Positions 2,356-59,859 of a stretch of DNA of 64,000 bases are shown in pieces. The stretch is from Alphaproteobacteria bacterium. Its GTDB lineage: Bacteria; Pseudomonadota; Alphaproteobacteria; G02398745; G023898745. Position 1 is the stretch's first letter; each line of letters opens with the position of its first letter. The notes below the pieces were generated by a model. The model was not told the origin of the DNA. It worked only from the letters and a program-made list of their open reading frames with translations, and made no database searches. Where the stretch lies: NCBI GenBank assembly GCA_023898745.1, contig CP060237.1, forward strand, positions 235,718 to 299,717. Reading direction: 5' to 3'. Both the position numbers and the translations under genes were made by a program.

Positions 2356-3012
2356 TCACTTGGTAAAATGAAACCCAAAAAACAACCGAACAATAGATAA
2401 CTTTGAGTCAAACTTACAATCACATGTTCTATTTTTCCACGCACCTATGGGATGAATATAATATGATTTAATGCCTCTGACTTCTCCAGCAAAAGAACAC
2501 CAATCCGTTAGGCGATAACGGGCACCAATACCACCTAAAAATCCGACGTTAAAAACCAAAGAACATATACCTGCTATATTTCCAGCAAAAAGCGTTGCGG
2601 GATTAACAACGCCATACACACTCCAACGCTCATTAAAAAATTTACCGAAGCGAAATTGTGTTACACCTAGATCGCCCTCTATACCGCCTTTTAACAGAGT
2701 AACTTTCTCTGTACCTTGCACATCTTTAGGATGAAGAGTTGCCCAGTTAAAACCTGTAACTCGGCCAAGGTAGCTGTAATGAATTGAACCATGTGCACTC
2801 AAAAAATTCCATTCACAAAAATAAGTAGACCTTGAAAAAAACTGATACCCAGCTTCAAAACCAACACCACCTATGAAACCTTCTTCATCTTTGTATGATT
2901 CTTGAACTGCAGTAGACGGATGAATTTTAACAGTTGATCCATCAGCCTTTATAAAACCCTTGCCAAAATTTCCTAAAAGATCAAACGTAAAATTTCCCGC
3001 GAATAAAAACAT
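2356..3012 (-). CDS. Hypothetical Gly/aromatic-rich protein with an MFLF N-terminal leader; candidate outer-membrane or surface protein, downstream of rpsI
   Basis: Uninterrupted 218-aa ORF 4 bp downstream of rpsI on the same strand. Composition is rich in G/F/Y/W alternating segments, like beta-barrel OMPs. Paralog-like to the 4124..5068 and 12511..13311 ORFs. Confidence 0.5.
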   Translation of the reverse strand: MFLFAGNFTFDLLGNFGKGFIKADGSTVKIHPSTAVQESYKDEEGFIGGVGFEAGYQFFSRSTYFCEWNFLSAHGSIHYSYLGRVTGFNWATLHPKDVQGTEKVTLLKGGIEGDLGVTQFRFGKFFNERWSVYGVVNPATLFAGNIAGICSLVFNVGFLGGIGARYRLTDWCSFAGEVRGIKSYYIHPIGAWKNRTCDCKFDSKLSIVRLFFGFHFTK

Positions 3013-3015
3013 AAA

Positions 3016-3444
3016 TTAACGCTTGGAGAATTGGAACTTCTTACGTGCTTTTGGACGACCAGGTTTTTTACGCTCAACCTCACGTGCGTCACGCGTCAAG
3101 AAACCAGCTTGCTTCAATGTTGGGCGAAGCTCTGGGTTGAATAACGAAATGGCTTTGCTAATACCATGCCTCAAGGCACCAGCTTGACCAGATAATCCAC
3201 CACCTTCAATTGTTGCAAACACATCAAACTCTTGGTTTACACGCTCAAATGGTTGGTGAACCATCATTTGCAAAGTAGGGCGTACAAAATACTTATGCGC
3301 TTCTTGACCATTCACGCTCATTTTGCCTGTGCCTTTTTTGATCCAAACACGCGCAATGGAGCTTTTTCTTTTTCCTGTTGCATAACTTCTGCCAAGTTTG
3401 TCGAGCTTAGGTGCTGCAATTTCTTGATTATCAGATAAACTCAT
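3016..3444 (-). CDS. rpsI: 30S ribosomal protein S9
   Basis: [22 protein letters not shown] motif; the C-terminus ends in KR; it overlaps the rplM stop in an ATGA arrangement. Confidence 0.95.
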
Positions 3445-3926
3445 TATTGATCTCTCCTTATGTTCTTCTCATTCATCATAGCAACATTCAAAACTTCTGG
3501 TTTTTGCGCTACATGTGGATGATCTGCACCTGTGTAAACTTTCAGGTTACGCATTAATTGATTTCTCAATGGGCCTTTGGATAGCATTCTTTCAACAGCT
3601 TTTTTTACAAGAGTTTCAGGATGATGCCCTTGAAGACGCTCCTTCGCGTTCTCTTCCTTAATTCCGCCAGGATAACCTGTGTGACGATAGAATACTTTAT
3701 CTTCCATCTTTTTGCCTGTAAGATGCACTTTATCTGCATTAATTACAACAACATTATCACCACAATCCATGTGCGGTGTATAAGATGGTTTGTGCTTACC
3801 TTTAAGGCGCATTGCAATCACGCTTGCCATTCTGCCCAACACGAGATTCTCAGCGTCTACAAGCACCCATTTCTTGTCGATTTCTTTCGCTTTCAATGAC
3901 TTTGTATGCATTATTATAATTTTCAT
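3444..3926 (-). CDS. rplM: 50S ribosomal protein L13; an alternative start at Met6 (position 3911) is possible
   Basis: [47 protein letters not shown] is typical of L13; rplM-rpsI operon order. Confidence 0.93.
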
Positions 3927-4031
3927 ATGCGAGTACTAAGTCAGTATAGAGCATTTTATGTAAAGCATGCAAGAAAATTTAGAGACGTCATTATAGGGTG
4001 CAAATCTATCCCGTTATCACGAACGGCAAGT

Positions 4032-58073: not shown

Positions 58074-58183
58074 TTTGCCCTCTACTGTACAACTCGTCAT
58101 CACGAGGCGCACAGCGCCGTGGTGATCCAGTGGATGGCCACGGAGCTCAGCTCCTCACCATGACACACCCTCTCACAAAAACG

Positions 58184-58780
58184 CTAATTCATCGCTCCTT
58201 CAAAGCGGCATCTCGGAAAAGAAAGCTCCACAAGCTGCGTTAGCAAGAAGCATTGTTCATGTAACGATTTTGCCTCAAGAAGGCACTGTTTTTCAATAGA
58301 TTGAAACGGGCAAAAGTTTAATAGATACTGCATTAACTTTTTGTCAGAATAATTATGTATAACTTCCCAATTTGGCTGCATATTCAATTTCAAGAAATAA
58401 TGCGCGAGCGCCTTTTTGAGTTTTTCACGACTAAACTCTTGATGCGGCGTTGTTGCATTGGTATAACGCACCTCACCTCGAATGAGAGCATATTCTGTTT
58501 TAAATGATAGAATATCAAAACATTTAATACCTTCAACAAATAAACAGATCTTATCTGGCTCTATTTCTTCATAATCCAAAACACGTCCGAGTGTACCTGT
58601 GGAATAAAAACCACCCTCTTCTTTTGTTTGCACAACACCAATATATTTAGACGTTTTAAGAGAGGCTGCAATTAACGCCAGAGCAGTAGCGCCCTCAACG
58701 GGCAACAACATTTCATTGCCTGGTAGTAAAACCTCATTTTTAAACAACACAAGTGGTAGATGTTTTGGAAACGCGCTCAT
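58184..58780 (-). CDS. LON N-terminal (substrate-binding) domain protein
   Basis: LPLVLFKNEVLLPGNEMLLPVEGATALALIAASL matches the start of the Lon N-domain; it is a stand-alone 198-aa protein. Confidence 0.55.
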   Translation of the reverse strand: MSAFPKHLPLVLFKNEVLLPGNEMLLPVEGATALALIAASLKTSKYIGVVQTKEEGGFYSTGTLGRVLDYEEIEPDKICLFVEGIKCFDILSFKTEYALIRGEVRYTNATTPHQEFSREKLKKALAHYFLKLNMQPNWEVIHNYSDKKLMQYLLNFCPFQSIEKQCLLEAKSLHEQCFLLTQLVELSFPRCRFEGAMN

Positions 58781-59070
58781 TGGCTTAAATGAAGTTATGA
58801 CTTACCCTAATTTATTATAGAAACAACTTTGTGAAGAGTTTCAATATATTAAAGTAAATTTTTATTACTTTTTAAATAAATTCAATTATTATTTGAAATA
58901 TCTGAGATTTTTCGCATAAAAACAACTCGTCATGGCAAATCTGCCATAGGTAGATGCGGTCATCCATAATGGATCACCACGGCGCTACACGCGCCTCGTG
59001 ATGACGAAGCCCCCTACCAATTTCCCAAAAAAAGTAAGATACTAGGACAAAGCACATTATATAAAAAATC

Positions 59071-59859
59071 ATGCTGTTCTTTTTCTTCACACTTTTTGCG
59101 CAATCTATTGATGATTTTCAACAGCATAGCAATACCTCACAAGAAGAAATTGATCATGATTCTTTCAACATGTTCTTGCAGAAATATACTGTTATCCTCA
59201 GGGATGGCCGATCTGTTGTGAAATATAAAGATGCAAAACACACAAAGGCAGCGCGAGACCTTTTAAACGACTATATCAATTATCTCAAGAGCATCCCGAT
59301 TGCACATTATAATAAGAGAGAACAGTTAGCGTTTTGGATTAATCTTTATAACGCCTTAACTATCCTGCTAGTTTTAGACCACTATCCTGTGAAAAGCATT
59401 CAAGATATAAACATTGGCTTTTTGTCTTTTTTTGGACCATGGAAACAAAAACTCATCAAAATTTCAGGGGTGGAATTATCTTTATATGATATTGAAAACA
59501 ATATTCTCCGCACATTCTGGAAAGATGCACGTATTCATTATGCCTTGAATTGCGCATCTTATAGCTGCCCCAATCTGAGAAATCAGGCCTACAAAGGGAA
59601 GGATATAGATCTCATCCTCGACCGCGTGGCAAGTCTTTATATTAACCACAGACGCGGCGTAGCAGTTGATGCAGATAATGGATATCTCAGAGCCTCAAAA
59701 ATCTACAAATGGTATAGTGGAGATTTTGAACCATCTGTTTTGGAGCATCTTAAAAAATATGCCCGCCCTGATTTGAAAGAAGCACTGGAACATCGCAATT
59801 GGATTGATGGATATGATTATGACTGGCGATTAAATGATTTTGAAGAGCCTAGAAAATAA
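59071..59859 (+). CDS. DUF547 domain protein with an MLFFFFTLFAQS leader
   Basis: AFWINLYNALTI and HYALNCASYSCPNL are the signature segments of DUF547. Confidence 0.7.
   Translation: MLFFFFTLFAQSIDDFQQHSNTSQEEIDHDSFNMFLQKYTVILRDGRSVVKYKDAKHTKAARDLLNDYINYLKSIPIAHYNKREQLAFWINLYNALTILLVLDHYPVKSIQDINIGFLSFFGPWKQKLIKISGVELSLYDIENNILRTFWKDARIHYALNCASYSCPNLRNQAYKGKDIDLILDRVASLYINHRRGVAVDADNGYLRASKIYKWYSGDFEPSVLEHLKKYARPDLKEALEHRNWIDGYDYDWRLNDFEEPRK

Follow-up and report, generated by a model that had tools for sequence, protein, structure and literature searches.

The leader and the genes that carry it

We examined a short N-terminal leader that recurs in a 64-kb stretch of alphaproteobacterial DNA (the whole stretch analysed, hereafter the window) from a small genome, a contig of 953,497 bp. 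The window has a GC content of 38-39% and about 58 plausible genes. Sixteen of its open reading frames (ORFs), about a quarter of the genes, begin with the pattern M-[F/L]-[F/L/M]-x-[F/L], after which Ala and polar residues usually come next. The data comprised the window and about 65 kb of contigs from relatives. In a search with RuvB, two relatives from the same clade were 77-78% identical whereas all other matches were 61-66% identical, and this gap indicates that the lineage is isolated and sparsely sampled. The source organism and its relatives are uncultured, probably protist-associated symbionts.

Among the leader-bearing products, Pfam recognized a PBP5/DacC-type carboxypeptidase, a BepA-like M48 peptidase, a DUF547 protein and three Ser/Thr kinases; it also recognized TamB, which is considered below. 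The D-Ala-D-Ala carboxypeptidase PBP5 (31047-32138) starts with MFFLFSKA/A (31047..31076, + strand), where the slash sets off the leader from what follows. Its Peptidase_S11 match begins at residue 13. In an AlphaFold2 model of PBP5 with a mean predicted local distance difference test score (pLDDT) of 85, residues 1-14 fall below 50 and the first strand runs from residue 22. The M48 peptidase (13644-14837; Peptidase_M48 match, E 1.6e-22) starts with MFFLFA/QHLVFDDE (13644..13673, +). This start is an internal ATG of an ORF beginning at 13569, and its choice in an earlier reading of this DNA, the first-pass annotation, is backed by the NCBI annotation and by the starts of orthologs in the clade. 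The DUF547 protein (59071-59859) starts with MLFFFFTLFA/QS (59071..59106, +; N-terminus MLFFFFTLFAQS).

The kinases are tandem paralogs on the minus strand, with the leaders MFFIVA/TTVV (16051..16080; ORF 14827-16080; Pkinase match, E 3.5e-34), MFFDFLYA/AE (18231..18260; ORF 16578-18260) and MFFAFLQTA/T (20075..20104; ORF 18401-20104). A library search returned a full-length match to a window paralog alone, together with one further leader example (P0427, MFITIYAS). Beyond the paralog, the best matches of the kinase domain were multidomain proteins of 1,200-6,000 aa, which suggests from sequence a eukaryote-like origin; the N-terminal 370 or so residues of the kinases are orphan. The paralogs also have in common an upstream element of about 60 nt (16097-16157, 18273-18333 and 20120-20180). 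The enzymes that carry the leader retain intact domains and catalytic motifs.

Three Gly/aromatic-rich proteins with leaders form one outer-membrane protein (OMP)-like family, all on the minus strand. They are a small outer-membrane (OM) beta-barrel of 218 aa (ORF 2356-3012) with MFLFA/GNFTF (2983..3012) and an in-frame stop one codon upstream; a 314-aa protein (4124-5068) with MLFTLFA/NGFYFGVNG (5039..5068); and a 266-aa protein (12511-13311) with M-S-F-MFLLQA/VNFHIGLQ (13273..13311), which has a Shine-Dalgarno site upstream and starts at 13311 or 13302 (N-terminus MSFMFLLQAV). Their C-terminal ends resemble beta-signals, and their alignment has an invariant Ala immediately ahead of the first predicted beta-strand. 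The 218-aa member has a weak Pfam OMP_b-brl match. Its AlphaFold2 model, a low-confidence one (pLDDT 56) built on window sequences only, consists of beta-structure alone from residue 5 on; its top Foldseek matches are OmpA-TM, OmpW and OmpX, with NspA and Ail also among the matches. The low scores of the first 14 residues of PBP5 and the first strand of the OMP from residue 5 place the leader outside the fold of these proteins.

The other leaders are on proteins of 733 aa (ORF 10083-12284; MFLYFLGA/TTTT, 12255..12284, -; N-terminus MFLYFLGATTTT; AGGAGG Shine-Dalgarno upstream) and 724 aa (21917-24091; MLFSILFA/AS, 24062..24091, -), both without a recognized function; on a coiled-coil-like protein of 382 aa (27859-29007; MFLLFINA/SS, 27859..27888, +; in-frame stop one codon upstream), for which NCBIfam gave weak, SMC-like coiled-coil matches only; and on four further ORFs. 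The latter are 29212-29457, a small ORF (M-MFMYFLYTSA/S, 29212..29244, +; N-terminus MMFMYFLYTSAS), 38781-39332 of 183 aa (MFFYFVNTS/S, 39303..39332, -; AGGAGG Shine-Dalgarno upstream), 39679-39999 of 106 aa (MFMLFA/TQQ, 39970..39999, -) and 49317-49709 of 130 aa (MFFLFSSA/EQ, 49317..49346, +; Shine-Dalgarno TAGGAGAAGC upstream). A possible, weaker additional leader, MLQWIFLSN (34571..34600, +), begins a 543-aa ORF (34571-36202) and was absent from the first-pass list. None of the leader proteins has a further transmembrane (TM) segment, save for sub-TM hydrophobic windows in ORF 2356-3012 and the M48 peptidase. Searches of ten leader proteins in NCBIfam at E <=1, and in Pfam, found no match to an N-terminal signal or sorting-domain model.

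All sixteen leader N-termini quoted in the first-pass annotation were present when read from the true ORF starts. The positions it gave as starts were the low coordinates, however, and on 11 minus-strand ORFs these mark the stop-codon end. The true starts of ten of these are 3012, 5068, 12284, 13311/13302, 16080, 18260, 20104, 24091, 39332 and 39999. The 11th is TamB (55380-58112), its seventeenth entry, which had to be removed from the list. The TamB N-terminus, MFRRLFLVFLFF (58038..58073, -), is a classical Arg-containing signal-anchor instead of the leader, and its real start is probably 58073; an intergenic repeat accounts for the spurious extension to the GTG at 58112. Upstream of every leader ATG is an in-frame stop at 1-20 codons (1-4 codons in eight cases), and at least five leader starts are preceded by AGGAGG-type Shine-Dalgarno sites. 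We considered whether a longer signal peptide could be hidden by a recoded stop, but read-through of the upstream stops yields nothing resembling a signal peptide. These stops and the good Shine-Dalgarno sites thus indicate that no longer signal peptide is concealed upstream.

The leader was found on none of the 19 tabulated window proteins with clearly cytoplasmic homologs (Der, S9, L13, S20, HisS, an IscA-type protein, PRPP synthase, Rpe, an RRM protein, Tig, DnaB, TpiA, RuvB, DksA, a Lon-N-domain protein, a NUDIX protein, TyrS, an oxidoreductase and terminase). Inner-membrane proteins retain K/R and long hydrophobic segments, as seen for PpiD, RodA, CNNM and TamB, and for PBP1A in a relative. 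The first-pass statements that cytoplasmic housekeeping proteins and proteins with a classical TM anchor lack the leader were therefore borne out, and within the window the motif is not equally frequent in cytoplasmic genes. Its list of leader-bearing envelope enzymes holds for the DacC-like PBP and the BepA-like peptidase but not for TamB. An FG-GAP-repeat protein of 961 aa (43512-46397, -) has neither leader nor signal peptide.

Composition, enrichment and conservation

The composition of the leader was computed on 36 examples, with cytoplasmic proteins as the comparison. Residue 2 is F, less often L, with F, L or M at residue 3 and F at residue 5. Counted from Met1, the initial apolar stretch has a median length of 5-6 residues. 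At residues 2-10, K/R occupies 4 of 324 positions (1.2%) compared with 26 of 171 in the cytoplasmic proteins. An Ala is found within positions 5-11 in 33 of the 36 leaders; the residue at -3 relative to it is mostly L, I, V, S or T, and a polar residue comes after the Ala. At positions 7-10, 52% of the residues are small in leaders and 26% in cytoplasmic proteins. Phe accounts for 52% of the hydrophobic residues in leaders but 22% of those in the classical signals of distant orthologs, and the overall spectrum favors interfacial aromatics (F, Y and W), plus L and M, over the I, V and A typical of TM helices. With no basic n-region and a core of about 4-6 residues, the leader is indeed too short for a canonical Sec signal peptide, as had been noted before.

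The codons of the leader are informative about the level at which it is selected. The T fraction in codons 2-6 is 0.71, 0.81 and 0.54 by codon position in leader genes, compared with 0.19, 0.29 and 0.32 in other genes. The ratio of TTT to TTC for Phe is 34:8 in leaders (TTT 81%) and 82:18 in gene bodies (82%), and Leu in leaders uses all six codons. Since Phe codon use equals that of gene bodies and all Leu codons occur, selection acts on the peptide and not on U-richness.

The pattern was found at the start of 12 (strict) to 14 (loose) of the 58 window genes, while its frequency in sequence windows internal to genes is 0.7-1.3% (binomial p ~1e-14). Only 3-5 of 386 internal Met positions carry it (Fisher p 5e-11 and 3e-8 versus gene starts). 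In control loci, 9 of 1,349 ORF-genes from 80 loci of other Alphaproteobacteria and 7 of 646 from 80 metagenomic loci had a similar start, a pooled rate of 0.8% of 1,995 genes from other bacteria. The metagenomic loci came from a scan with the M48 clade alignment, which matched by a generic HExxH-type pattern and had no clade member among the matches listed.

Comparison with orthologs indicated that the leader occupies the place of a signal peptide. PBP5 homologs in five other assemblies, at 46-51% identity, start with MMFLLLANL, MLSLFAKAF, MFFLLSQAP, MFILVAHT and ..MFFVMAQN, whereas almost all of 114 more distant homologs (<=39% identity) have classical signals such as MNFLKFFITIILFSIFTNFTSA/E. 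A profile scan of genome contigs with the PBP5 clade alignment returned distant orthologs only (<=40% identity). The M48 proteins of the clade, with the N-termini MFFLFAQQLIFDDEIE, MFLWFFLQADNLIVDDE and MFICSFLFGLECILDDE, all start at the MFFLF-type Met. Their orthologs outside the clade have a signal of 25-50 residues with an AxA end directly before a common (I/L)RDxEIE landmark; the DxEIE lies at residue 12-15 in the clade and at 27-52 elsewhere.

Orthologs with 36-62% identity, including those of PBP5 and M48, keep the leader in at least five other organisms, which bears out its conservation among relatives. The 733-aa orphan is 20% identical to its positional ortholog on a relative's contig (L083), which starts with MFFHFYLMGSSPT; both have the leader. 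The relatives' contigs (L081, L083/84, L085, L086 and L169-171) have a GC content of 32-41%, and their syntenic and unrelated genes provided further leaders: MFFHFYLMGSSPT, MFIYALDFHVGVQ, MFICATNFHVGVQ, MFFLFINATQ, MFLFLMASPGAPT, MLFFMGMLIASS, MILLQLAVYATRG, MFYLWVRGA and MILFFNVNAME. The LptD of one relative starts with MILWASIEIK, with a stop two codons upstream; this LptD was recognized via PDB sequence matches (E 1.7e-10), while a Pfam search with it gave no recognition. Other envelope machinery kept in the lineage includes RodA, PBP1A, TamB, BamB and PpiD.

Nearly every intergenic region of the window contains GC-rich modular hairpin repeats. At least 30 copies of these units, each about 35-45 nt long (TGGATCACCACGTCGCT.CGCTCCTCGTGATGACG and related sequences), lie in both orientations and are joined into composite, REP/RPE-like elements of 70-180 nt. 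Examples are at 914-958, 4038-4088, 5275-5420, 7003-7351, 12440-12484, 20220-20270, 21168-21354, 25408-25723, 32721-33061, 36233-36388, 41847-42033, 43103-43457, 46862-46954, 47632-47712, 53610-54153, 55119-55362, 58095-58165 and 59898-60028. The repeats produce spurious ORFs (MDHHTLLRKARDD… and VAIHNGSPRR…) and false GTG extensions of RuvC, CNNM/TlyC and TamB. Isolated between repeat elements is a gene for a large terminase subunit (Terminase_6N/6C; 7356-8540, -), which may be a remnant of a gene transfer agent or prophage, and a single-RRM RNA-binding protein of 86 aa is encoded at 25138-25398 (+).

A group of orphan proteins of about 440-580 aa has an N-terminal TM anchor. They are encoded at 49706-51028 (-) and 51146-52459 (+), and by a leucine-rich-repeat (LRR) protein gene to the right of the window (L168:1274-3004). 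The anchor is closely alike in 51146-52459 (MSKNNFAGKLVLAICVSWALPLLLW) and the LRR protein (MSFSNHFTPKLILAIVISWALPLLAW), while 49706-51028 has a similar start and a more divergent anchor. Judged by its sequence, this anchor is a second, distinct N-terminal module in the genome. No sec, lepB or ffh gene is present in the window or in the relatives' contigs examined. The SecYEG-associated chaperone PpiD (36442-37950) is the sole Sec-linked component seen in the 64 kb. The order tpiA-secG is a common gene arrangement; here tpiA (38184-38777, +) has no secG downstream and is adjoined instead by a leader-bearing orphan on the opposite strand.

A proposed minimized export signal and its alternatives

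The leader is a motif enriched at gene starts, restricted to non-cytoplasmic protein classes, equivalent in position to signal peptides, conserved in the clade and selected at the level of the peptide. Its position, conservation and class restriction support the first of two explanations offered in the first-pass annotation, a minimal lineage-specific targeting or secretion signal. We propose, and consider likely, that the leader is a drastically minimized and probably cleavable N-terminal export signal that would have replaced the classical tripartite Sec signal peptide throughout the lineage. Export itself, its dependence on Sec and the cleavage of the leader are inferred from these features, and the clients would be soluble periplasmic, outer-membrane and secreted, effector-like proteins. 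Full-text literature searches found no description of the motif, of a comparably short or minimal signal peptide, or of a matching novel N-terminal signal.

As we envision it, the leader would have no basic n-region but only Met1, followed by an apolar core of about 4-6 residues that is dominated by Phe and Leu with some Tyr, Trp and Met, and then by a putative [L/I/V/S/T]-x-Ala site inside residues 5-11 ahead of polar, often acidic or Ser/Thr-rich sequence. The uncharged hydrophobic N-terminus would engage the lateral gate of SecYEG or the membrane interface. It may enter head-first because nothing would hold the N-terminus in the cytoplasm, and engagement may depend on a relaxed, prlA-like proofreading of signals that is specific to the lineage. 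The chain would then be translocated, and signal peptidase I (SPase I) would cut after the Ala to free a peptide of 5-10 residues. Membrane anchors, which must remain in the membrane, have kept classical K/R and long hydrophobic segments. A Sec translocon with relaxed proofreading would be the most economical mechanism for such leaders.

Several points weigh against this proposal. In Escherichia coli, a short core that also lacks positive charge is the least favorable case for export, experiments indicating that the two changes together abolish it, and canonical Sec recognition is therefore not expected to work on these leaders without changes in the machinery. A few leaders (MFFYFVNTSS, MFICSFLFGLE and MFFHFYLMGSS) have no Ala site. 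The leader implies that the three eukaryote-like kinases would leave the cytoplasm; because they depend on ATP, their site of action must lie past the periplasm and be reached via a further secretion step. The association with protein classes is drawn from the 64-kb window and about 65 kb of relatives' contigs. The start of BamB, whose lipoprotein signal is discussed below, is ambiguous, as the ATG is part of an intergenic repeat unit and the contig ends there. Finally, no validated Sec h-region is as short as this core, which has about half the minimum length found in signals validated by proteomics: such signal peptides are 15-35 aa long, with a minimal h-domain of 5-10 and an n-domain of at least 2 residues (PMC3509430).

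An alternative is that the leader is an export or secretion signal outside canonical Sec and SPase I, with M-Phi-Phi-x-Phi (Phi, a hydrophobic residue) read by a dedicated lineage-specific receptor or translocase or by uncleaved head-first insertion; the mature protein may then retain the leader as an interfacial tag. In favor of this, Sec recognition as it is known does not accommodate so short and uncharged a core, the residues of the core lean to F, Y, W, L and M over I, V and A, and housekeeping envelope proteins share the tag with effector-like kinases. We nevertheless regard such a route as unlikely. The retained [LIV]-x-A and the polar residue after it are reminiscent of an SPase I site, and the leader sits where orthologs have Sec signal peptides. 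A new general translocase in a genome of about 1 Mb is also less parsimonious than the tuning of Sec, and no candidate machinery for it was seen in the window.

Degeneration was considered as a further explanation, in which the leaders would be functionless remnants of signal peptides or wrong start calls, and the proteins non-exported or pseudogenes of a decaying symbiont. The genome is small (953 kb) and full of intergenic repeats that yield spurious ORFs and false N-terminal extensions. However, the composition and position of the leader are kept over at least six organisms in which PBP5 is just 46-51% identical, and also where the protein body is 20% identical. Domains and catalytic motifs are intact, the envelope machinery (RodA, PBP1A, TamB, BamB, PpiD and LptD) is retained and upstream stops rule out longer starts. 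Together, these observations make degeneration very improbable. We give equally little credence to a signal for one-step host-directed secretion by a type III secretion system (T3SS) or flagellar-type apparatus, or to an N-degron that controls stability. The N-termini are Ser/Thr-rich past the hydrophobic start and the leader is on kinases and orphan proteins, but it is also on PBP5, the BepA-like peptidase, OM beta-barrels and LptD, which are periplasmic or OM housekeeping proteins with Sec signal peptides in other bacteria. N-degrons of the ClpS type require F, L, W or Y as the first residue, and a Met followed by Phe or Leu is not known to be removed, which argues against an N-degron. The second explanation in the first-pass annotation, a translational or 5'-coding element in which a U-rich region after the start codon boosts initiation and the peptide is a by-product, has the T-richness of codons 2-6 in its favor but is rejected as the least credible of all, since Phe codon use equals that of gene bodies and Leu uses all six codons, and the pattern reaches to position-specific Ala and K/R depletion. 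The leader also aligns with ortholog signal peptides and is limited to exported classes; housekeeping genes, among them those for ribosomal proteins with their high expression, do not have it, and the Shine-Dalgarno sites of several leader genes are strong as they stand.

The proposal of a minimized export signal has consequences beyond the window. It is possible, although we would only tentatively suggest it, that envelope proteins and host-directed effectors are exported throughout the lineage by an uncharged, Phe-rich tag about 6-10 residues long, which canonical Sec should reject. If so, these organisms would have either a naturally 'prl-like', re-tuned SecYEG, SecA and SPase with head-first entry, or a new receptor for the M-Phi-Phi-x-Phi peptide. 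Current signal-peptide predictors would overlook essentially the whole secretome of the clade, and predictions of secretomes and effectors in these symbionts would be blind to the leader. A clade with only M-F-F-L-F-x-A on periplasmic and OM proteins defined by homology would set a real lower limit of an export signal, and co-occurring changes in SecY, SecE, SecA and LepB would make it a natural experiment in how the translocon is gated and proofreads. Candidates for export marked by the leader are the three eukaryote-like kinases together with about eight orphan proteins, and the leader could yield very small secretion tags.

Comparison with known signals

The textbook signal peptide consists of a basic n-region, an h-region of 7-15 residues and a c-region with AxA. 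The leader resembles such a Sec type I signal in being N-terminal on periplasmic, OM or secreted proteins, here PBP5, the BepA-like M48 peptidase, OM beta-barrels and a relative's LptD, and in occupying the same position in orthologs. It likewise has an apolar core, then a putative small-residue [LIV]-x-A site and a polar, non-basic early mature region. It differs in its Phe dominance and its dimensions, with a core of about 4-6 rather than 7-15 residues and a total of about 6-10 rather than 20-30. No positively charged n-region was found among the 36 leaders (K/R 1.2% at positions 2-10), and their median apolar run of 5-6 residues does not reach the h-region length of about 7-15.

A compositional parallel is provided by the low-alanine signal peptides of the alphaproteobacteria Pelagibacter ubique and Ehrlichia chaffeensis, which have Phe/Ile-rich cores at normal length (Payne et al. 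2012, PMC3509430). These too belong to AT-rich alphaproteobacteria and have a hydrophobic patch enriched in Phe rather than Ala. Their n-domain is at least 2 and their h-domain at least 8-9 residues, whereas in the leader the length is collapsed and Ala is kept at the putative -1 position. The prlA/prlG (SecY/SecE) suppressors illustrate how a translocon with loosened proofreading can export preproteins with short or defective signals (PMC3101351). Such loosening would be the most economical way for the leaders described here to work. The suppressors are laboratory mutations of E. coli, while here a whole natural lineage would rely on the effect, and the connection is one that we propose by analogy.

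No lipobox Cys was found in the first 15 residues of the 16 leaders, which distinguishes them from lipoprotein (SPase II) signals. A likeness exists in BamB of the same organism (L167:3-1184, left of the window; window 23-862), which has the lipobox LTSC just 10 residues after the ATG (..HVAPLLVMTTAILSLTSCAQT, i.e. ..MTTAILSLTSC). Its sequence suggests that lipoprotein signals may be minimized too, or that the repeat supplies part of the BamB signal. As for the Tat twin-arginine motif (S/T-R-R-x-F-L-K), RR occurs in none of the 16 leaders and only in the classical anchor of TamB. Type IV prepilin (class III) signals have a short basic leader that ends in Gly, then F/M-T-L-x-E and a hydrophobic helix of 20 residues, whereas the leaders here are hydrophobic first and then polar with no TM segment following. 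The double-glycine leaders of C39-peptidase ABC exporters have 15-30 residues, a GG/GA/GS end and the pattern LS..EL..I; the leaders here have 6-10 residues and no such pattern. T3SS signals share with the leader an N-terminal, non-cleaved-looking, Ser/Thr-rich character and an occurrence on effector-like proteins, but they lack a conserved hydrophobic pentapeptide, and PBPs, BepA, LptD and OMPs are not among the proteins that carry them.

Hydrogenosomal and mitosomal proteins have very short N-terminal presequences. These presequences are basic, serve import into eukaryotic organelles by other machinery and have no homology to the leader. By analogy only, they are a likeness to it as targeting signals that have shrunk to a few residues in reductive evolution.

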